DNA of 10,688 nt from a virus (taxonomy: Duplodnaviria > Heunggongvirae > Uroviricota > Caudoviricetes), in the IMG/VR virus record IMGVR_UViG_2778261676_000006, positions 1 through 10,688 of that record; one strand, 5' to 3'. The position numbers and the translations under genes are program-made. Position 1 is the stretch's first letter, and every line of letters begins with the position of its first letter. Shown here in pieces: positions 1 to 9,938 of the stretch. Under the pieces are notes generated by a model. That model was not told the DNA's origin. It was given only the letters and a program-made list of their open reading frames with translations, and ran no database searches.

Positions 1-996
1 TTATGGACGCATTATGGACATTCCTGACACCGGGTTAAGAGTCACAGCATCTTGTAAGAAATCCGGTGCAAAGTGTGCGTAGGTCATAGTTTGCTGAATG
101 TTAGAATGACCCAGGATGCGCTGCAATGTGATTATGTTACCTCCATTCATTATAAAATGTGTGGCAAATGTATGCCTCAAAACATGTACTGCTTGTCCGT
201 CAGGTAAATCGGGTTTTACTTCCCTGAGAGCGTTACGCACTTTGTAGTAACTGGCATTAAAAAGCCTGCCTGAATTTTTGGTCTTGATCCGTTTAATCAG
301 GTCCTGCGAAACGGGAATTGTCCTGCGTTTTCCGTTTTTAGTTTTCATAAACGTAACCATCTGGTTAATGATGTGTTCAGCTTTTAAATTAGCCACTTCA
401 CTCCAGCGTCCACCAGTAGAAAGGCAGACCAGAGTTGCATTTAATTCATCACCATCAAGCATGGATAACAGCCGCGTAATCTCTTCACTGGACAAAAAAG
501 CCATTTCCGTAACAGCTTCACGTAACCGTTTAATCTCACGGAACGGGTTGTGAGAGTGGTATTCACCGGCGTCAATTAACTTGGTGAACATCCCACTCAT
601 TATTGCCAGATGTCGATTTACGCTGGCTGGTTTTAGACCATCGTTCATCATTACAACGCGATAATCAGTTATCGTTTTCTTTGTTAGCTGGTCAGCTCTG
701 GACACTCCCATTTCTGCAAATTTGGCGATTATTGTCGTTAAACGCCCCCGTTCAATATCTCCACGCTCATGTGATTTTCCGTGATATATCCACCATCTGC
801 CTAACAACTCTGTAAGAGTTCGGCGGTCGGCTGGTTTCTCCAACCACTCTTTGTTGTGGTAGTTAACCAGTACATGACGTTCGAATGCTTGAGCTTCACC
901 TTTAGTTTTAAATTTCCGCCTGATACGTTTTCCATCTGCACCCTGCGGTCTGACGTCCACTTCATAACGACCATCATCGAGCTTTTTAATAGACAT
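1..996 (-). CDS. int: P2-type tyrosine integrase (site-specific recombinase, phage integrase family)
   Basis: 331-aa ORF. C-terminal catalytic box HVLRHTFATHF...LQRILGHSNIQQTMTYAHF (conserved R/H/R/Y pattern of tyrosine recombinases). N-terminus MSIKKLDDGRYEVDVRP matches P2 Int as I recall it. Lies directly downstream of the repressor on the same strand, as in P2. Confidence 0.9.
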   Translation of the reverse strand: MSIKKLDDGRYEVDVRPQGADGKRIRRKFKTKGEAQAFERHVLVNYHNKEWLEKPADRRTLTELLGRWWIYHGKSHERGDIERGRLTTIIAKFAEMGVSRADQLTKKTITDYRVVMMNDGLKPASVNRHLAIMSGMFTKLIDAGEYHSHNPFREIKRLREAVTEMAFLSSEEITRLLSMLDGDELNATLVCLSTGGRWSEVANLKAEHIINQMVTFMKTKNGKRRTIPVSQDLIKRIKTKNSGRLFNASYYKVRNALREVKPDLPDGQAVHVLRHTFATHFIMNGGNIITLQRILGHSNIQQTMTYAHFAPDFLQDAVTLNPVSGMSIMRP

Positions 997-1089: not shown

Positions 1090-1389
1090 TCAGCCAGTCT
1101 TCTGGTCTGAGTGGTGCAAGGTTGTTGAGTCTTGCCCAATGTGTGCGAGAGCCGGGGCTATTTGTCCAGCTGCTGGATCTGTTTCATCAAACATGAACCA
1201 GTCACGATACTTGCGAAAGCGTGGATGCTTAAACAGCTTCATACCTGCTTCCATAGGCATTTTTGATTTTCCTGATTCATATCCATGATATGTGTAGTAA
1301 TTAATTCCAATTAATTCAGCAAGTTCCTTAGTTTTAAGGCGTTCGGATTCACGGATGAGCTTTAGTTTCTCACTTTGTTCACTTGACAT
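1090..1389 (-). CDS. C: P2 C-type immunity repressor (small HTH repressor)
   Basis: The track ORF 1090..1407 uses a TTG start. The internal ATG at 1389 gives 99 aa (MSSEQSEKLKLIRESE...), the length of P2 C. The C-terminal half GQIAPALAHIGQDSTTLHHSDQKTG closely resembles the P2 C C-terminus as I recall it. HTH-like segment LKTKELAELIGINYYTYHGYESG. Sits between int and the divergent cox gene. Confidence 0.75.
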   Translation of the reverse strand: MSSEQSEKLKLIRESERLKTKELAELIGINYYTYHGYESGKSKMPMEAGMKLFKHPRFRKYRDWFMFDETDPAAGQIAPALAHIGQDSTTLHHSDQKTG

Positions 1390-1407
1390 AATTTTGCTAA
1401 TCTCCAA

Positions 1408-1482: not shown

Positions 1483-1497
1483 ATGGAGGATAGCAAA

Positions 1498-1854
1498 GTG
1501 ACGACAAATGTAGAAATTTCTTGTCCAACTAGCGATGAGGCAAGTTTCGAAAATGAAGCCAAACGTAAAAGCATTCAGATTTCAGAGCGCCCATCTGATT
1601 TGCTGTCGAAAGAAGGTTTTGCTCTTTACATCGGTAAGACACCACGCGCGGTGGCTGAAATGGCTAAAGCAGGAAAGCTGCCAGCCTTCTACATGACAGA
1701 CCCATTAAAACCAAGAGGGAAAGCTGAATTATGGATTAATCGCCGTGAGTGGGACAAGTACGCAGCCCAACTGGTTGATGAAGCTCCGACAGAATGGCAT
1801 GACTGGAAAAATCGCATTAGTTACAGCAAATCAAGACATGGCCGTGCGGCTTAA
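1498..1854 (+). CDS. cox: Cox-like excisionase / early-promoter regulator
   Basis: Track ORF 1483..1854. GGAGGA at 1485-1490 followed 7 nt later by in-frame GTG 1498 suggests the real start. Segment GKTPRAVAEMAKAGKLPAFYMTDP resembles the winged-helix core of P2 Cox (GKLPVIDMTDP as recalled). First gene transcribed divergently from C. Confidence 0.6.
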   Translation: MTTNVEISCPTSDEASFENEAKRKSIQISERPSDLLSKEGFALYIGKTPRAVAEMAKAGKLPAFYMTDPLKPRGKAELWINRREWDKYAAQLVDEAPTEWHDWKNRISYSKSRHGRAA

Positions 1855-2035: not shown

Positions 2036-2532
2036 CAGTGATGACGCTTAACCTCGTCGAAAAACAGCCAGCAGCCATGCGCCGGATAATTGGTAAGCAT
2101 CTGGCCGTCCCTCGCTGGCAGGAGACATGTGATTATTATAATCAGATGATGGAACGCGAACGGCTAACGGTTTGCTTTCATGCGCAGTTAAAACAGCGTC
2201 ACGCAACGATGCGTTTTGAAGAAATGAATGACGTCGAACGTGAACGGCTGGTTTGTGCAATTGATGAACTGCGTGGGGCATTCTCAAAACGCCGTCAGGT
2301 TGGCGCAAGTGAGTATGCATATATTAGTTTTTTAACAGTCAGTCAGCGTCGCACTTTATTTATGCACGCACGACTGACAGAAAAAGAATTTAACCAGCCA
2401 TACTGGCGAATTAATGAGGAATCATGTTACTGGCGTGATGCTTTATTCCGTGCATTACGTGAATTATTCAGCCTGTTTGAGTATGCACCGACAATTCTGA
2501 CGTCGGTAAAACCAGAGCAATATCTGCATTAA
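2032..2532 (+). CDS. B: Replication gene B protein (P2 gpB family, DnaB helicase loader)
   Basis: 166-aa ORF; the sequence MT.MTLNLVEKQPAAMRRIIGKHLAVPRWQ...FEYAPTILTSVKPEQYLH matches P2 B protein as I recall it, and the length is the same. SD GGAGGG lies upstream; the start overlaps the upstream stop (ATGA). Confidence 0.85.
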   Translation: MTVMTLNLVEKQPAAMRRIIGKHLAVPRWQETCDYYNQMMERERLTVCFHAQLKQRHATMRFEEMNDVERERLVCAIDELRGAFSKRRQVGASEYAYISFLTVSQRRTLFMHARLTEKEFNQPYWRINEESCYWRDALFRALRELFSLFEYAPTILTSVKPEQYLH

Positions 2533-2552
2533 ATAATTAACCAGAGTTTTTA

Positions 2553-2581
2553 ACGCACTTAATCGTGCGGGGCTTCTTTTT
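2553..2581 (+). terminator. Weak hairpin plus T-tract between B and the next ORF (possible attenuator)
   Basis: cgcac-ttaatc-gtgcg 5-bp stem followed by gggcttcttttt. Short stem and interrupted T-run, so weak at best. Confidence 0.2.
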
Positions 2582-2595
2582 GCCTGGAGAAAGTC

Positions 2596-2820
2596 ATGCA
2601 TACAGTTTCTGAAAATCAGTGCGGTAAATACGCATTACTGCTGCAACAGGCCAGAACCGAAGCACAGGCCGACGCTGCGACGCGCTTTTCTTCTCATCTT
2701 GACGCCATGATTCGCCATATCACAAAGGCGGAGTTATCCCGCGTGGAGATAGTCGAGCTGCTCAGTCAGGAGTCGGAAAAATTTCACAATATCGGATTGT
2801 CTCGCGGGGAGGTGCTTTGA
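2596..2820 (+). CDS. Hypothetical early-region protein (P2 orf80-like position)
   Basis: 74-aa ORF with SD GGAGA upstream of ATG 2596; same strand and spacing as the small ORFs between B and A in P2-like phages. Confidence 0.65.
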
Positions 2821-3119
2821 TGTCCTGTTCTCATTCAATTGTATTACTGAATAACGCCTTAAAAATCGCCGTTATGAAAAATGGCGATTTATCTCTTATT
2901 CAACTTTGTCTTGATAAAGAAAAACGCGACATAACTGAATCTGTTATCGCGATTTATCAGAATGAATTAAACCTCCTGTCTGATATGGTCAATTTACTTG
3001 TTAAACGCGCTGTGTTCCACAAGCAAATTTCCTCAGTGGATGAACTGACAAAATTAACGACAGAACTCGCCAGTTATTGCGCTGATGTATCCAGGAAACT
3101 TAACGATAAAAGGAGCTGA
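2820..3119 (+). CDS. Hypothetical early-region protein (P2 orf81-like position)
   Basis: Track ORF starts at TTG 2817; ATG 2820 overlaps the upstream stop (TGATG), with SD GGGAGG upstream. About 99 aa. Confidence 0.65.
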   Translation: MSCSHSIVLLNNALKIAVMKNGDLSLIQLCLDKEKRDITESVIAIYQNELNLLSDMVNLLVKRAVFHKQISSVDELTKLTTELASYCADVSRKLNDKRS

Positions 3120-3121
3120 TA

Positions 3122-3223
3122 ATGCCGGACAACGTAGATTTTATTCAGGAACAACAGGCTGAATTACTGGAGCGCCAGATTAACGCGGCAAGGGTAAAAC
3201 ATTGCGGTGTTTCTGCGCTGGTT
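3122..3223 (+). pseudogene. 5' fragment of orf82-like gene (probable TraR/DksA-type zinc-finger protein), truncated at a deletion junction
   Basis: Good SD (AAAGGAG) and ATG 3122. The N-terminus MPDNVDFIQEQQAELLERQINAARVKHCG looks like the start of a TraR/DksA-like small protein, but the C4 zinc-finger cysteines never appear. After about codon 34 the frame continues as an out-of-frame reading of gene A sequence up to 3538. Confidence 0.45.
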
Positions 3224-3993
3224 ACCGTGAACTACGCAAATTGCCTCGCGGCGTCAGCATTGCTGATGAGTTTGACGAGCGCGTCGAGGCTGCACGCGCC
3301 GCCGCAGACAGTGGTGATTTTGCGCTGTATATCAGCGCGCAGGGCGGGGCAAATGTCCCGCGCGATTGTCAGACTGTCAGGGTCGCCCGTAGTCCGTCGG
3401 ATGACGTTAACGAGTACGAGGAAGAAGTCGAGAGAGTGGTCGGCATTTACGCGCCGCATCTCGGCGCGCGTCATATTCATATCACCAGAACCACGGACTG
3501 GCGCATTGTGCCGAAAGTGCCGGTCATTGAGCCTTTGACTTTAAAAAGCGGCATCGCCGCGCCTCGGAGTCCTGTCAATAACTGTGGAAAGCTCACCGGT
3601 GGTGATACTTCGTCACCGGCTCCCACGCCTTCTGAACACGCCGCAGCAGTGCTTAATCTGGTTGATGATGGTGTTATCGAATGGAATGACCCGGAGGTCG
3701 TGAGGGCGCTCAGGGGTGCATTAAAACACGACCTGAGAACGCCAAACCGTCAGCAAAGAAACGGAAGCCCGTTAAAACCACATGAAATTGCACCATCGGC
3801 CAGACTGACCCGGTCGGAAAGAATGCAAATTACCCGTATCCGCGTTGACCTTACTCAGAACGGTATCAGGCCGCAGCGATGGGAGCTTGAGGCGCTGGCG
3901 CGTGGCGCGACCGTAAATTATGACGGGAAAAAATTCACGTATCCGGTCGCTGATGAGTGGCCGGGATTCTCAACAGTAATGGAGTGGAAATGA
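3221..3993 (+). pseudogene. A: 3' fragment (about 258 codons) of P2-type replication initiator gene A, lacking the N-terminal two-thirds
   Basis: The 263-aa open frame has no credible start (opens at TTG 3202 inside the orf82 frame; no SD or ATG near its 5' end). The sequence ...YRELRKLPRGVSIADEFDERVEAARAAADSGDFALYISAQGG...TVMEWK matches the C-terminal region of P2 gpA as I recall it. Full-length A is about 760 aa. Confidence 0.7.
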
Positions 3994-4445
3994 TGGCAAA
4001 AATTCACGAGGTAAAGCTGCACGCAAAATATTTTGACCTTGTGCTGGAAGGAAAGAAACGCGCAGAGTTTCGGAAAAATGACCGTAATTATGAGCGCGGG
4101 GACACGTTGATTTTGCATGAATGGGTGCAGGGTGTGTATACGGGGCGAAAGGTTGAAGCCCGGATAACAGATGTTACTGACTTGTCAGACTGGCTGGAAG
4201 ATTATGTCTTGCTAAGTATTGAGCTGCTTAATACAGGCGCATATGAGTTTGTGAACTGGAAAGAACTTAGTGAGCGTGGTCTGGTATTCAGAATTAATCA
4301 TGAAATTATGCATCAGCTCGGCCTTGCTGTTGTGTATGAACCAGAGACGGGGATGTCTGGCGGGGCAGTGGTTGGTGCGGATGGGATATGGAACTATTCA
4401 GATGAACAGGTGGAGCGTGCACAGCAAAACGGGTGGCTTGGATAA
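3990..4445 (+). CDS. ASCH/DUF3850-like (PUA-fold) protein
   Basis: Track ORF 3957..4445; ATG 3990 overlaps the stop of the A fragment (ATGA). N-terminal KIHEVKLHAKYFDLVLEGKKRAEFRKNDRNYERGDTLILHEW resembles ASCH/DUF3850 domains common in phage early regions. Confidence 0.65.
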   Translation: MMAKIHEVKLHAKYFDLVLEGKKRAEFRKNDRNYERGDTLILHEWVQGVYTGRKVEARITDVTDLSDWLEDYVLLSIELLNTGAYEFVNWKELSERGLVFRINHEIMHQLGLAVVYEPETGMSGGAVVGADGIWNYSDEQVERAQQNGWLG

Positions 4446-4651
4446 TGCACAGAATACCAGGCGAGATACCGCAGCATAAAACTAAAAATATCAAGCTGAT
4501 GGCCATTGTTCACCGTCTACAGCAGATTATGGTCAACGAAAATCTGACGCCCGATGAGCTAGTCGGGTGTGCCGAAATAGTCCGGGATAATTACGTATGG
4601 CTTAACTATATCGGTCAGCCCAGCGCTGCACCGCCACCACGCAGACGATAG
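4445..4651 (+). CDS. Hypothetical small protein (68 aa)
   Basis: ATG 4445 overlaps the upstream stop (TAATG); GC-rich like the phage backbone. No recognisable motifs. Confidence 0.4.
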   Translation: MHRIPGEIPQHKTKNIKLMAIVHRLQQIMVNENLTPDELVGCAEIVRDNYVWLNYIGQPSAAPPPRRR

Positions 4652-4840
4652 AGAACGCAGCCAGCTCAGGATTGGCGGGGGATAGAATAACGAGCATAGT
4701 GATGCGATTAGACAAACAGACTGACTGGTACACTTAGGATGGTTATAGTGGTTTCTAAGTGCTTTAGCGATACATCTGGTGGACTGTTTTACCAACCTCA
4801 GAGTTAGCTGAATTTTTAACAAAATACCATTTTGATAGAT

Positions 4841-4869
4841 TTGCCTAATTTATTAATTAAACTATACTG
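4841..4869 (+). promoter_or_regulatory. Candidate sigma70-like promoter for the + strand cargo operon
   Basis: TTGCCT (about 4841-4846), 16-nt spacer, TATACT (about 4863-4868), in an AT-rich stretch about 90 bp upstream of ATG 4960. Confidence 0.3.
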
Positions 4870-4959
4870 GACTTATACACAGTGTTCTGTTAATTGTTAG
4901 GTTGGTAAGATATTGTGAGGAGGTGATTACTATCTTGGCATCAATCAAGTGGAGGTTAA

Positions 4960-5196
4960 ATGATGAATATATTTGAACGTATTATAGGTAAAGCTGCTAT
5001 TGAAAAGGAAAGAGAACTGGCGAGGAGGCTTGAAGCATCTGGAACAAACACTGTTGAGGTGGTAGGTCGAGGCGCGATTATCACGTCTAAAGAAGACTTG
5101 GCAAGCTCAGATACAGTAAAATTGATGAAAATTAAAGCAAGAAAAATAGTTTCTGAGCAGGTAAAGCAAGAAGAAAAAATGGCTAAAGGGAATTAA
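4960..5196 (+). CDS. Small charged soluble protein (78 aa), first gene of a two-gene cargo operon
   Basis: GGAGG at 4951-4955 precedes ATG 4960/4963. Lysine/glutamate-rich, no TM segment. The stop is 2 nt before the start of the next gene. Low GC. Confidence 0.6.
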   Translation: MMNIFERIIGKAAIEKERELARRLEASGTNTVEVVGRGAIITSKEDLASSDTVKLMKIKARKIVSEQVKQEEKMAKGN

Positions 5197-5198
5197 TA

Positions 5199-5960
5199 AT
5201 GTTTGCTTTATTAATTATTCCATTACTTGTGAGTGGTTATATTGTATTAACCACTCATCCTTATCATTTCTATAGATTACACCGTTATGATGGGCAGTTG
5301 TTATATATGAAGTCAGCCGCCTTTGGTCTGTGGTGTTTTATATGGACATTGATTATAGCTTACTTAATAAAATGGATATGTCCGAGCTTCCATCCTGTCA
5401 CGATGGTTCGGGAACAATTAGATCTCAAACTTAGTGACAATGGTACTGAAAGAATCATAGGATGGATGATTTTACTTTCATGTGGAACGATATTTTTGGC
5501 TTGGATATGGAGTGTCGGTGCTAGATATTTGGTTATATATAGAGCTAAAATTATAAATTATATCCAAGGGGTAAAGGCTGCCAATATTGATTATGAGAAT
5601 CTTGTCATGCTAAGGATGAGGCAAGAGCTTATTAATGATAATCCAATGGATGAAATATTTTTTGATTCGTTAGTTGATAGACGTTCAATACTTATTACGT
5701 TGCAAAATAAAAAGACATATGTAGGAATTGTTAACGCATTAGGTGAGCCTAACGAGAAAGAAGGACCTAACCAGTATGTTTCAATCTATCCTATTATCTC
5801 TGGGTATAGAGATAAGGATTCATTGAAAGTAATCTTGGTGAATGAATATAGAGAGCTTGAGGATGCTGATACTAGTATCATCTTTCCACTAAAAGAAATT
5901 TCGCAAGTTTCTTGGTTTGATATGGATATTCATAAAATAGTTGAAAATAATAAGGTGTAG
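5199..5960 (+). CDS. Predicted integral membrane protein (3 N-terminal TM helices plus a soluble C-terminal domain of about 145 aa)
   Basis: 253-aa ORF. Hydrophobic segments FALLIIPLLVSGYIVL, AAFGLWCFIWTLIIAYLIKWI and IIGWMILLSCGTIFLAWIWSV. SD AAAGGGAA upstream; tightly coupled to the upstream gene. Low GC. Confidence 0.7.
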   Translation: MFALLIIPLLVSGYIVLTTHPYHFYRLHRYDGQLLYMKSAAFGLWCFIWTLIIAYLIKWICPSFHPVTMVREQLDLKLSDNGTERIIGWMILLSCGTIFLAWIWSVGARYLVIYRAKIINYIQGVKAANIDYENLVMLRMRQELINDNPMDEIFFDSLVDRRSILITLQNKKTYVGIVNALGEPNEKEGPNQYVSIYPIISGYRDKDSLKVILVNEYRELEDADTSIIFPLKEISQVSWFDMDIHKIVENNKV

Positions 5961-5963
5961 TAA

Positions 5964-5988
5964 ATGGTCACCTATAAAAGGTGACCAT
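5964..5988. terminator. Bidirectional intrinsic terminator between the convergent cargo operons
   Basis: Perfect 9-bp inverted repeat ATGGTCACC-tataaaa-GGTGACCAT, followed by a T-run on the + strand (ttattttt) and flanked by an A-rich stretch (T-rich on the - strand). Sits exactly between the stop at 5960 (+) and the stop at 5994 (-). Confidence 0.55.
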
Positions 5989-5993
5989 AATGC

Positions 5994-8258
5994 TTATTTT
6001 TGACGAATCCTGATTTTTGGTTGTTCACGAACAACAATATCAGTTTCTTTCCAACCAAGATTATTTATTTCAACCTCGGCTTCGTTGTAGACTGTAGTAG
6101 AATTGGCAAGAGATCTTAACGTAATAGCCAATACAGCACGTTGAGGTGAAGATAGAGGCTCTTGCTCTGCTCGTCTCTGAACATCAAGTTTAAGTCTCCA
6201 TTGCTCCCCATTTATACCTTGCGGAAATTGTTTTCTATAAACTTTGACTGGAGACCATTTGAAGCCATTTTCTATCAGTACCTTTTCAAATAATTCACTC
6301 TTTTCTTTTATTTGTGGAATTTTTCCGCTATGTATCCATTTAGCGTTAACTGGATCATAAGTGTAAGTCCCGAATGACACATCCACATTAGAACGGCAAT
6401 ATTCGGATGGGTAGTCATAATCAAGCGGTGGAGAATAAACGAGTGTCATAATAATTTCACCTGTGAATTTTCCATCCTCAGTACGTAATGACTGTGGTAT
6501 TACAAATGGCGTTCTACTGAATTCAATACCTTCTCGGGTATCTATTTCAAATAGAAATGTAATCTCATTTTTATTGCAACCAATAATATCATTTATATGA
6601 TCGCTTGGGCGTCCAAATCCTTGATAATTAAACGCATAATGCTCCGTTTTGGCTGGTGAGTTTTTTAACGCAGAATGAATTAATAGTGCCTTGATACGTT
6701 CAGGCGATGGTGAAATAGAACCATTAACATCTAGTTCATGCCACAGTGATGCCGCTAAACTTGAGATTAACGGTGCTGATAAACTTGTGCCAATACTTTC
6801 GCAAAGAGCATTGTCCTCGCCAATAGCTATGATTCCGGTATGTTCACAGTTTAATTTACTGTCACAATTACCTCCAAAGTGATTTATCTCTGGTTTGGGT
6901 ATAAAGGCTGGGCCGGGACCTCTTCTAGAAAAAGATGAAGGTTCAAATCTTTTGACCACAGAGTCAGACGATTCTAAATGGGCAACTGAGCCAACAGTTA
7001 ATGAACGAACAGAATCTGCGGGGGCTGATATTCTGTCATGCCCACCTAATTCTTGAGGAGGCCAGGTTCGTTGAGGATCATAAATGTAGTTGCCGGATGC
7101 TACGACGAAAAGACAATCATGCTCATCATGAAGTGCATTTAAAAAATGCCCCAATTCAGAGAAGCTGTCTTCAGAACATGGGGATTGACAACCTAATGAC
7201 AGATTCCATACACGTACTTCTGGATAGGTGGTCACAGCCTCTCGGATAGCTTTCATTAATTGTGGCAATTTGAGCGTACCATCTTTGGGAAAGGCTGCAA
7301 CATCAACAATTTCAGCTTGGCATTGAGGAAAACCAGCATAGTTATTCAACCATCTTCCATTAATTGCTAAACTTGCAACCATGTTCCCATGAGAATAGTC
7401 GTGTTCTCCTTTTACTAAATCTAAACTATCCCAAATCCATGGCCTAAGTATGTTGTTATTGGGATCGACTCCGCTATCTATAATTCCGAGTAGTGGATAA
7501 TGTTTATCCTCTTGAGGTAAGGGAAAATCATCTAGGTCTAGAGTTTCAGCAGGAATATATTGCGATACTGTATGAGTAAGACCAAATGTTGGCATAGGTT
7601 CTAATTTTCGTATGCCAATAAAACTTGCCAGTTGGGCGATGTTATCATTCCCTTTTACTTCATATATACTCAAATCTGAACTGATATCATACTTTTTGGG
7701 TTTTTGTATTCCTAGTTCATCTGCAAATTCCATTAATTCTTTGTCGATACTGCGGTTAGTTGTTCTATCTTTATGGTCAAAGAGTTTCAGAAGAAAACTA
7801 TCTGATTTATTTTTATCTATAACATCATGGTTAAGACTAAAAGGTTCGATCTTTTCAATTACAGCAATATGTACTGTCCCATTATGAGAATTAGTGCTAT
7901 TTTCAATTTTTTTGCGAAGTTGTGCTAACCCTTTTTCAGTAACACTTATAAGTAATTCTCCAAAATTATCACTGCCTATTACGGGACATGTATTATCACC
8001 TAATAGGCTTGATGGGCGATGTGACTTAGCAAGAGCTTTTTCATGAAGAGTAACTCTAGCCACCGCCGGTATATTGGGCCATTTTTTAAATGAGCTCTGG
8101 AAAAAATTTTTAACGTCATCGACTTCTTGTTTGAGTCTATTTTTTAGACTAGTTGTTACTGTTCGGATAGGTTGTTTCTTTCCGAAATTATATGTTTTTT
8201 CAGTAAAATCTTGAGGTGTCGCCTCAATTATTTTTATTGGTCTTTCTTTGTTACTCAT
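5994..8258 (-). CDS. ietS: S8 subtilisin-family serine peptidase, cytoplasmic, with extra N- and C-terminal domains (IetS-like)
   Basis: 754-aa ORF. S8 catalytic motifs in canonical order: Asp LLGIIDSGVD, His HGNMVASLA, oxyanion Asn VVASGNY, Ser GTSLSAPLISSLAA. No N-terminal signal peptide (MSNKERPIKIIEATPQDF). The start overlaps the stop of the upstream ATPase (ATGA at 8255-8258). Confidence 0.8.
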   Translation of the reverse strand: MSNKERPIKIIEATPQDFTEKTYNFGKKQPIRTVTTSLKNRLKQEVDDVKNFFQSSFKKWPNIPAVARVTLHEKALAKSHRPSSLLGDNTCPVIGSDNFGELLISVTEKGLAQLRKKIENSTNSHNGTVHIAVIEKIEPFSLNHDVIDKNKSDSFLLKLFDHKDRTTNRSIDKELMEFADELGIQKPKKYDISSDLSIYEVKGNDNIAQLASFIGIRKLEPMPTFGLTHTVSQYIPAETLDLDDFPLPQEDKHYPLLGIIDSGVDPNNNILRPWIWDSLDLVKGEHDYSHGNMVASLAINGRWLNNYAGFPQCQAEIVDVAAFPKDGTLKLPQLMKAIREAVTTYPEVRVWNLSLGCQSPCSEDSFSELGHFLNALHDEHDCLFVVASGNYIYDPQRTWPPQELGGHDRISAPADSVRSLTVGSVAHLESSDSVVKRFEPSSFSRRGPGPAFIPKPEINHFGGNCDSKLNCEHTGIIAIGEDNALCESIGTSLSAPLISSLAASLWHELDVNGSISPSPERIKALLIHSALKNSPAKTEHYAFNYQGFGRPSDHINDIIGCNKNEITFLFEIDTREGIEFSRTPFVIPQSLRTEDGKFTGEIIMTLVYSPPLDYDYPSEYCRSNVDVSFGTYTYDPVNAKWIHSGKIPQIKEKSELFEKVLIENGFKWSPVKVYRKQFPQGINGEQWRLKLDVQRRAEQEPLSSPQRAVLAITLRSLANSTTVYNEAEVEINNLGWKETDIVVREQPKIRIRQK

Positions 8259-9418
8259 AATATCTCTCTATAGTTCTTAGTTAGCCTTGACACTTTAGCA
8301 TTTGAAAGCCCTAGTATTTTTGCTATCTTTCGTATTGTAAATCTTTTGGGATTGTATTCTCTGAGAGTGGTCACAATCTTTATAAGTAAATTATCTTCTT
8401 CATCAAATGTAACTCCCTTCGCTTCTAAGATAGCCTCGACTAAAAATCGGGTATCGATTTGTTTATTATTGTAAACCAGAGCATGTCGCTCAGATCTTAA
8501 GCAGCATTGTTCTATAAATGAGCAGTTTAGCCCTGATGATATTTCCGCAAGGTCATCAACAAAATCGTCATATGTAGCTTTTATGTTTGAATATTGTTCA
8601 AATAGTTGTTTTCTGACTTCAAAATTAGGCAATCCAATAGATATTCTATACTCAAAGCGCCTCCAAACTGCGCTATCTAGAAGATTTTCATGATTACTTG
8701 CAGCAATCAATATTGTTTCTTCAGGTAGATTGTCAATATTTTGCAATAAAGAAACCACCACCCTCTTCAGTTCACCTAACTCATGCTGATCATCTCTAGC
8801 CTTTGCTAGAGAATCTAGTTCATCTAGAAATAAAACACATGGTGCTTTACTTGCATACTCAAATAGCTGCCTGATATTTTTAGAAGTAGACCCCAGATAT
8901 GATGAGACTAAGGAGTCACATCTTGCAGTAAGAAGCGGTAAATTTAGACAGGATGCAATATATTTTGATGTCAAGGTTTTACCACAACCTGGTGGCCCAT
9001 ATAAAATCATAGAGGATGTCACGCCAAGACCGGCATCCTTTAATTCTTTAGCTCGTTCAGTGAAAGTCAAAAATTCTTTAATTTTTTTCAGAGTGCTATC
9101 TTTCAACAATGGGAGTTGAATTTCAGAAGACGGTTGAGTTACGTCTGCTAAATCAAATTTAGTTTCTTTATCTACAGGTAATGTATCAAGACGTTCAAAA
9201 ATAGGTGATGTACTGCGTGATACTTTCTGCAAGTTAAACGTGTTTTTATCTTGAATACTACCTCTAATGGCTGAAGCAAGCTCAGGCAGCCCCATAGAAT
9301 CATAGGAACGCGCGAGTTTCGAAGCCTGCCGAACAAAAGCAACTTTATCCCCTTTGAGTCCAAGACTGATAAGCTGCGAAAGTATCTCGTTTGTGGTCAT
9401 TTGTGATACAAACCTCAT
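8255..9418 (-). CDS. ietA: AAA+ ATPase with C-terminal HTH-like tail (IetA-like)
   Basis: 387-aa ORF. Walker A GPPGCGKT (about 8975-8998), Walker B CVLFLDELD, sensor-1 LIAASNHEN, probable Arg finger in VWRRFEY. C-terminal IRKIAKILGLSNAKVSRLTKNY resembles a helix-turn-helix. Translationally coupled to the downstream S8 peptidase. Confidence 0.8.
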   Translation of the reverse strand: MRFVSQMTTNEILSQLISLGLKGDKVAFVRQASKLARSYDSMGLPELASAIRGSIQDKNTFNLQKVSRSTSPIFERLDTLPVDKETKFDLADVTQPSSEIQLPLLKDSTLKKIKEFLTFTERAKELKDAGLGVTSSMILYGPPGCGKTLTSKYIASCLNLPLLTARCDSLVSSYLGSTSKNIRQLFEYASKAPCVLFLDELDSLAKARDDQHELGELKRVVVSLLQNIDNLPEETILIAASNHENLLDSAVWRRFEYRISIGLPNFEVRKQLFEQYSNIKATYDDFVDDLAEISSGLNCSFIEQCCLRSERHALVYNNKQIDTRFLVEAILEAKGVTFDEEDNLLIKIVTTLREYNPKRFTIRKIAKILGLSNAKVSRLTKNYREIL

Positions 9419-9600: not shown

Positions 9601-9659
9601 TGTGACTAGGTCTGCCCTTCCTGATGCGTTTGCATTAAAACCTCCCCATGAAGCGGGCG

Positions 9660-9678
9660 GGCGAGGCGGGGAAAGCAC
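9660..9678. other. cos site (19-nt cohesive-end sequence of P2/P4 type)
   Basis: GGCGAGGCGGGGAAAGCAC matches the P2/P4 cohesive-end sequence as I recall it. It lies where cos is expected, between the cargo and the portal-side end of the genome. Confidence 0.6.
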
Positions 9679-9832: not shown

Positions 9833-9938
9833 GATGTTCAGCCGTTGTCAGTGTCCAGTGAGTAGTTTTTAAAGCGGATGACCTCCTGACCGAGCCAGCC
9901 GTTTATTTCCCGAATCCTGTCCTGTAGCCTCCCGTAAC

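Follow-up and report, generated by a model that had tools for sequence, protein, structure and literature searches.

The 10,688-nucleotide (nt) stretch of IMG/VR record IMGVR_UViG_2778261676_000006 (Caudoviricetes) analysed here, hereafter the window, was read from its gene content as a defective P2-like prophage. It carries a pair of genes, ORF-A and ORF-B (open reading frames A and B), which converge on genes for an S8 protease and an AAA+ ATPase of the IetAS defence type. The pair and its signals were located as follows.

4841–4868, plus strand: sigma-70 promoter-like site, TTGCCT-16-TATACT, found by a consensus scan
4865–4884: candidate LexA (SOS) box, TACTGGACTTATACACAGTG; it overlaps both the −10 hexamer and the predicted start of transcription
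4951–4955, plus strand: Shine–Dalgarno site of ORF-A, GGAGG, 4 nt before the ATG and invariant in the upstream alignment of relatives
4960–5196, plus strand: ORF-A, predicted soluble partner of 78 amino acids (aa), phrog_37504
5186–5190, plus strand: Shine–Dalgarno site of ORF-B, AAGGG, 8 nt before the ATG
5199–5960, plus strand: ORF-B, predicted inner-membrane protein of 253 aa
5964–5988: hairpin with a 10-bp stem and a 5-nt loop between the convergent stops of ORF-B and the protease gene (ietS), a candidate shared terminator

The TAA stop of ORF-A and the ATG of ORF-B were separated by only 2 nt, and the ratio of non-synonymous to synonymous substitution rates (dN/dS) against two relatives was within 0.03–0.07 (ORF-A: 0.05–0.07, ORF-B: 0.03–0.05). 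ORF-A and ORF-B are real genes, tightly coupled and subject to purifying selection. The −35/−10 block was kept in C. youngae, a metagenome contig and Pectobacterium, with divergent flanks. The locus lies between gpA/orf91-like genes on one side and cos/portal on the other, which is the position of tin/old in P2, and its GC content was 0.32–0.37 over positions 4800–9400 versus 0.45–0.58 in the phage backbone. Thus, the layout described in the original prediction, namely a low-GC two-gene operon in the P2 hotspot with its own candidate promoter, Shine–Dalgarno sites for both genes and a single terminator shared with a convergent ATPase–protease cassette, was borne out in each of these points. 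The LexA box was absent from that account.

In an alignment of four diverged relatives, the conserved block upstream of the pair comprised the −35 and −10 hexamers and the next 16 nt, and it contained the LexA box. With a weight matrix of 21 E. coli SOS boxes (consensus TACTG(TA)5CAGTA), the box at 4865–4884 scored 19.7 bits, which is the training-set median, and the runner-up in the window scored 10.9 bits. The exact pattern TACTG-N10-CAGT occurred once in the window, and the site is a CTGT-N8-ACAG-type box over a promoter, as in genes of the LexA regulon. A box of 21.9 bits was found in the same place in the C. youngae relative, and a perfect CTGT-N8-ACAG box of 24.7 bits occupied the same place in the Pectobacterium relative, where the flanks could barely be aligned. 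Over 108 distinct loci, boxes of at least 14 bits were approximately 7-fold denser upstream of the membrane gene (27 in 230 kb, counting 2.3 kb 5′ of that gene at each locus) than elsewhere (19 in 1,097 kb). Boxes at the pair's own promoter were found in the clade of the window, in Klebsiella (L114) and in Proteus (L057). The box was located just after gpA in 186-like phages, driving gp11, DinI, the pair and bSEFIR, and it preceded an Ant operon with the pair at its end in P22-like phages. In three of the seven lineages in which the pair is linked with IetAS (described below), the box was absent or a decayed copy.

Because the LexA box overlaps the −10 hexamer, the pair in the window is probably repressed by LexA in the resting lysogen and induced in the SOS response. 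A pair that is probably silent until SOS, rather than constitutive, changes how it should be assayed, and plaque assays that use the native promoter without SOS induction could overlook a phenotype. The box provides a concrete and readily testable regulatory hypothesis.

Profile searches identified 2,585 clusters of the ORF-B family at 50% identity and 305 clusters of the ORF-A family. Family members occurred in Enterobacterales, Pseudomonas, Vibrionaceae and Beta- and Alphaproteobacteria. An ORF-A homologue was located immediately 5′ of the membrane gene in 33 of 38 species-level genome loci, a set spanning Gamma-, Beta- and Alphaproteobacteria, the spirochaete Turneriella and a contig labelled Nostoc. 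The remaining five loci were on contigs of very short length or belonged to the most distant relatives, which matched only in part, and one of them had an unassigned 76-aa ORF directly upstream of the membrane gene. Among the IMG/VR loci, which were collected by a pattern scan built on a 27-sequence alignment, a small gene preceded the membrane gene wherever the contig permitted. The spacing between the small gene and the membrane gene across the family was a 2–4-nt gap or an overlap.

IetAS was present at only six of the 67 IMG/VR loci of the pair. Nine loci lay in the P2-like hotspot between gpA and the portal gene without IetAS, 15 lay beside the integrase at a prophage end, and 23 were in P22-like prophages between the tailspike/Ant genes and a gene-16-like ejection protein; approximately 14 belonged to no named class. 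P22 itself carries sieA in the region matching those 23 loci (immI-type region). When the pair was compared with sequenced phages, megablast gave nothing and tblastn did give matches. In the inducible phage phiES15, the order was integrase, pair and attP, and the integrase–att junction also held the pair in E. coli and Klebsiella lambdoid prophages. The pair occupied the P2 hotspot without IetAS in phage SEN5 and in Klebsiella phage ST15-OXA48phi14.1, in the latter within a co-oriented array with DinI and bSEFIR. It was also carried on IncC plasmids. Only 32 of 5,426 complete E. coli genomes contained the module: 17 had the lambdoid integrase–att type, 12 the window type and three a second type linked with IetAS. 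The 95 nearest neighbours in 25 species were mostly ordinary genes, with a few defence genes (pAgo, a CBASS set, PD-T4-6 and IetAS). As judged from sequence, the pair is an autonomous and widespread module that stands alone far more often than with IetAS.

Several of these loci showed further features. In ST15-OXA48phi14.1 (L069, positions 3003–6492), a LexA box after gpA was followed by gp11, DinI, a small gene, an ORF-B-like gene, a 69-aa gene and a bSEFIR TIR protein, and this array is possibly an SOS-controlled composite operon in the P2 hotspot. No link was shown between this operon and the validated 2TM+1TM+TIR system of phage AC1 (TM, transmembrane), since only the TIR protein matched PADLOC (bSEFIR) and the other three proteins matched nothing. 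One P22-like locus (L122, positions 4344–6837) and 22 similar IMG/VR loci had a near-consensus LexA box of 27 bits, two small ORFs, the Ant antirepressor and then the pair, an arrangement suggestive of an antirepressor operon under LexA control that includes the module. The ORF-B homologue was broken into two or three ORFs in one Lautropia genome and in Arsenophonus and Sodalis (L086, L022, L050, L052 and L053). Such fragmentation resembles pseudogenisation, which is expected in the two endosymbiont genomes.

The protein models agreed with the predicted combination of a small soluble protein and a membrane protein with three TM helices. No hydrophobic segment was found in ORF-A, and its AlphaFold model (predicted local distance difference test score, pLDDT, of 75) consisted of a helix, a β-hairpin with an invariant VVGRG motif and a second helix. 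ORF-B had three hydrophobic segments (aa 1–22, 34–64 and 85–113), consistent with the long helices (aa 3–19, 32–60 and 83–123) in an AlphaFold model based on 27 homologues (pLDDT 77); the TM helices were placed at approximately aa 1–20, 39–62 and 85–110. After the third TM helix, the model contained two shorter cytoplasmic helices and then a six-stranded small barrel at aa 164–239 (domain placed at about aa 162–240, nt ~5682–5918). This barrel was strongly bent and superposable on Sm/Hfq structures, that is, of an Sm/LSm/Hfq-like fold. A structure search of BFVD with Foldseek returned weak Sm-like domain matches for ORF-B and no full-length match. Since the loops following TM1 (RLHRYDGQLLYMK) and TM3 were positively charged, ORF-B is predicted to have its N-terminus outside and its C-terminus inside, with the Sm/Hfq-like β-barrel in the cytoplasm. 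Invariant residues were concentrated in TM1, the first cytoplasmic loop and the barrel (KxYxG, EPxE, SGYR and SWF). One family member (P0184, 322 aa) had a C-terminal H-NS-type DNA-binding domain (TWSGKGRRPKW; Pfam Histone_HNS, E = 1e-9), and many others had lysine/arginine-rich C-terminal tails; the IetAS-linked clade had only a short tail. The H-NS-type domain and the basic tails fit a cytoplasmic ORF-B C-terminus near nucleic acid.

The original prediction could assign neither protein to a known family, and the database searches gave the same outcome. In Pfam, the window ORF-B had no match at E ≤ 1, including LSM, Hfq, WYL and MS_channel, and none of 137 ORF-B family members matched the LSM, Hfq or WYL sequence families at E ≤ 0.01. 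ORF-A likewise had no Pfam match, and NCBIfam gave none for ORF-A or ORF-B. No component hidden Markov model (HMM) of PADLOC v2.0.0 matched the window pair at E ≤ 1 or three diverged pairs at E ≤ 0.01, and sequence searches of the PDB with two profiles gave nothing below E = 0.1. In PHROGs, ORF-A and ORF-B each fell in an unnamed family. An ORF-A homologue is named 'TfoX/Sxy family regulator' by one source, a label to which Pfam gave no support.

Direct comparisons with individual proteins were also negative. ORF-B was unrelated to P2 Tin (BLASTP best E = 6.7, empty HMM comparison), and the shared length of 253 aa is a coincidence. The pair nevertheless resembles the Tin/Old cargo of the P2 hotspot in its slot, its low GC content and its variation from phage to phage. 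Like P22 SieA and other superinfection-exclusion proteins, ORF-B is a prophage-encoded predicted inner-membrane protein, located in the immI-type region in 23 P22-like contigs. However, no similarity to SieA was found (hmmsearch E = 0.08 in a set of eight sequences; hhalign probability 0.3%), and the pair differs in having two genes instead of one, a large cytoplasmic Sm-like domain and a distribution that extends outside phages. RexAB, Kiwa and the hydrolase+TM system of Rousset et al. likewise combine a soluble partner with a polytopic membrane protein on prophages, whereas the pair had no PADLOC match and its soluble partner is of 60–90 aa with no enzymatic fold. The ORF-B model has the layout of MscS-type channels, in which each subunit has three TM helices, N-out/C-in, followed by a cytoplasmic small β-barrel of the Sm-like fold class; as a candidate MscS homologue, ORF-B was rejected by an hhalign probability of ~0 against an MscS sequence and by the lack of a Pfam MS_channel match. 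With LexA-controlled prophage operons the pair shares the LexA box over the promoter, and its position just right of gene A corresponds to that of the tum operon of coliphage 186 (p95/tum type). Its proteins are unrelated to Tum and DinI, and they far exceed the type I SOS toxins TisB and DinQ in size. Overall, the pair is similar in logic to the two-component membrane systems of prophages and to exclusion proteins, and in sequence to none of them.

The genes on which the pair converges were assigned as follows.

5994–8258, minus strand: IetS-like S8 protease (PADLOC IetS, E = 1e-273; NCBIfam IteS_antiphage, 782 bits versus a cut-off of 900)
8255–9418, minus strand: IetA-like AAA+ ATPase with a C-terminal helix-turn-helix (PADLOC IetA, E = 1e-131; Pfam AAA; NCBIfam IteA_antiphage, 385 bits versus a cut-off of 510)

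IetAS is reportedly a defence system from the work of Gao and colleagues in 2020 and is said to have been described originally as the pTi plasmid stability pair IetA/IetS. The adjacent, co-oriented AAA+ ATPase and S8 protease genes that define it are the neighbours of the pair and not the pair itself. The window IetS and IetA aligned end to end with the canonical profiles, and their scores below the NCBI equivalog cut-offs place them in a divergent IetAS subclade and would also explain their RefSeq labels ('S8 family peptidase' and 'AAA family ATPase').

At every located ORF-B homologue with at least 54% identity, the small gene and the TM gene converged on IetS–IetA, with the stops 24–39 bp apart. 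A hairpin-like inverted repeat was present in the stop-to-stop gap of all six cassette lineages examined, with a different sequence in each. Seven such lineages, in at least four kinds of mobile element, were distinguished.

E. coli P2-like prophage
C. youngae P2-like prophage
Yersinia 186-like prophage
Rahnella P2-like prophage
Salmonella/Citrobacter island with AlpA and an integrase
Pectobacterium islet near cpxAR, flanked by insertion sequences (IS)
E. coli Rac-like lambdoid prophage

The pairwise identities of the four cassette proteins were tightly correlated over six lineages (ORF-B versus IetS, r = 0.98), and the synonymous divergence (dS) was similar across all four genes. The four-gene block has therefore travelled and diverged as a whole. 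In IMG/VR, a metagenome scan and E. coli genomes, searches that started from IetS, and so had no bias toward the pair, found it at every IetS of 60%–100% identity and never at IetS of 28%–44% identity (a Dongshaea plasmid, phage 683R6 and eight metagenome loci). Thus, the pair is not a general component of IetAS and is limited to the IetS subclade of at least 59% identity, in a sample that covers identities of ≤ 44% and ≥ 59% to the window IetS and in which most cassette lineages were found through ORF-B. The association probably derives from a single ancestral event. In the Dongshaea plasmid (44% identity), IetAS is followed by a convergent gene for a 201-aa hypothetical protein (L076, positions 7765–8370), which had no HMM match to ORF-B.

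The pair is accordingly not a canonical component of IetAS, to which it is unrelated in sequence. It converges on the IetAS genes from its own promoter, and canonical and more distant IetAS loci lack it, although in the window subclade it is the immediate neighbour and shares the same inherited cassette and terminator. The suggestion that the pair is an accessory of the neighbouring system was therefore upheld only in part: the four genes have co-diverged as a cassette, but both halves look complete and each family is widespread alone. AAA+S8 has also been listed alone in other P2 hotspots by Rousset et al. (PMC9122126). In the lineage of the window, the two systems probably cooperate or synergise; IetAS is able to synergise with the membrane-anchored Zorya II (bioRxiv 10.1101/2022.08.21.504612).

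Taken together, the pair is a good and credible candidate for a new anti-phage module, and a membrane-acting function against phages or rival prophages is a reading to which we give an even chance. Among the observations in its favour is the autonomous occurrence of the pair in classic accessory (moron) or defence slots. ORF-A and ORF-B form a self-contained, translationally coupled module that mobile elements, temperate phages among them, carry as cargo in their accessory slots. Ring assembly is usual for Sm-fold proteins, and the Sm-like domains of ORF-B might form a ring that gathers 18–21 membrane helices into a latent pore or a platform on the membrane face. ORF-A would be made in stoichiometric amounts and could bind the cytoplasmic face through its VVGRG hairpin and gate the ring or act as its sensor. 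The output would be a membrane-level growth block, by abortive depolarisation or exclusion of DNA entry, on an infecting phage or on a prophage in the same cell that the same SOS signal has induced. A block on induced rivals would be useful to a prophage that does not itself respond to SOS, and P2 is not known to be SOS-induced. In the lineage of the window, the module became fixed beside a divergent IetAS and has been passed on with it as a four-gene cassette. A fuller version, with a widespread anti-phage or anti-rival-prophage system consisting of an Sm-like membrane ring gated by a 60–90-aa partner, SOS-armed in many lineages and serving as the membrane arm of IetAS in one subclade, is more speculative and may be held only tentatively.

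Several observations weigh against a defensive, SOS-armed module. No homology to a validated defence, exclusion or toxin protein was found. The earlier proposal of a new anti-phage module gains from the presence of the pair without IetAS in several accessory slots, and no known homologue shows defence. The pair also occupies a conserved chromosomal site in several Pseudomonas species, and its neighbours outside phages are mostly ordinary genes, such as those for major facilitator superfamily transporters, TonB receptors and GGDEF proteins. The LexA box was found in only approximately one quarter of the distinct loci, and the matrix behind its scores was built on 21 E. coli boxes. Part of the LexA enrichment may come from location alone, because the boxes in P22-like and 186-like phages belong to an antirepressor or tum-type operon. 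Expression timed by SOS would also fit a role in the phage's own induction programme.

Three other explanations partly overlap with this candidate and with each other. The pair could belong integrally to a four-gene variant of IetAS that requires it, either as a membrane sensor or effector arm or as a substrate of IetS. The convergent pair beside every IetS of at least 59% identity, including loci found by IetS alone, is consistent with such a role, as are the seven cassette lineages with their correlated ORF-B and IetS identities (r = 0.98) and similar dS, and the placement of the window IetAS in a distinct subclade below the equivalog cut-offs. Moreover, another IetAS variant, ietHAS, has recruited an essential third gene (PMC13069673). 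Yet the association looks like one ancestral event, IetA and IetS are full-length against the canonical profiles, and the two units are convergent, with the pair under its own promoter. In most lineages the pair is complete without IetAS, and IetAS of ≤ 44% identity was never accompanied by it. We regard a required role in IetAS as unlikely. The location of the pair could instead reflect service to the phage itself during its induction or lytic programme, such as superinfection protection of the induced cell, lysis timing or DNA handling at the membrane. In P22-like and 186-like phages, the pair is downstream of, and co-oriented with, antirepressor or tum-type promoters under LexA control, and it lies in the region of sieA in P22. 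However, it has remained under purifying selection in a prophage unable to replicate or build virions, it occurs on plasmids and at chromosomal sites without phage genes nearby, and it is not a core phage function, because most relatives of each phage type lack it. We regard this role as improbable.

The LexA box also raises the possibility of an SOS-induced membrane toxin with a small regulator, which would stabilise its element or cause dormancy through addiction or persistence, in the logic of TisB or DinQ and without phage targeting. SOS-controlled membrane toxins such as TisB and DinQ have a LexA box over the promoter, as does the pair over its −10 hexamer. The layout is also toxin–antitoxin-like, with the small gene first, a 2–4-nt gap or overlap and then the membrane protein. 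The occurrence of the pair on plasmids and at prophage ends, and its retention in a prophage stripped of replication and structural genes, would be compatible with addiction, and IetAS itself was originally described as a plasmid-stabilising toxin–antitoxin pair (PMC13069673). On the other hand, ORF-B, with 253 aa and a folded cytoplasmic domain, is unlike the small SOS membrane toxins, and most family members lack a LexA box. A toxin of this kind is rather unlikely, somewhat less so than a role confined to the phage's own programme.

Should the pair prove to act in defence or exclusion, it would add a large family of approximately 2,600 clusters for which Pfam, NCBIfam and PADLOC have no model. 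Its architecture, in which an Sm-like domain anchored in the membrane is paired with a very small protein, would lie outside the PADLOC v2.0.0 models. The fixed four-gene cassette could provide an entry to the mechanism of IetAS and would represent a clean natural example of two systems that have stayed together while diverging over a long period. The gene set of the window was listed as P2-hotspot cargo by Rousset et al. (2022; PMC9122126), a study with no sign of this locus being cloned or tested. Judging from a short sequence excerpt, the 'Peptidase + TM' clone of those authors (pFR104) appears to be a different locus. The accessions of the pair were not found in full-text literature or in the available parts of the DefensePredictor supplements, and no description of the family was found in full-text literature on Sm-like domains combined with membrane proteins and phage defence or on P22 immI accessory genes.

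The remaining features of the window belong to the prophage backbone and its remnants.

1–996, minus strand: integrase
1090–1407, minus strand: C-type repressor
1483–1854, plus strand: Cox
Upstream of the orf91-like gene: truncated gpA
3957–4445: orf91-like gene, ASCH/DUF3850
4433–4651: 72-aa ORF (phrog_11386) between the orf91-like gene and the pair
After IetA: cos-like stretch, then the C-terminal half of gpD

Comparison with an intact relative in E. coli ABWA45 revealed two deletions. One removed orf82/83 and the N-terminal two thirds of gpA, with its junction near 3222 (region 3122–3993), and the other removed the sequence from the portal gene to mid-gpD, with its junction near 9928. The int–C–cox region and the hotspot cargo were intact despite these deletions. 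The orf91-like protein of the window has 162 aa, with an ASCH/DUF3850 and a DUF7415 domain. P2 Orf91, with 109 aa, is shorter and departs from it after approximately residue 75; therefore, the P2 copy looks truncated or altered. The 72-aa ORF overlaps the end of the ASCH gene, lies just 5′ of the pair's promoter and is annotated as hypothetical in relatives. A stretch of 48 nt at 9631–9678, located between IetA and the gpD fragment, matched the right genome end of P2 (cosR region) at 96%. The intact ABWA45 prophage carries an IS30 insertion in its early region (L001, positions 2142–3293).

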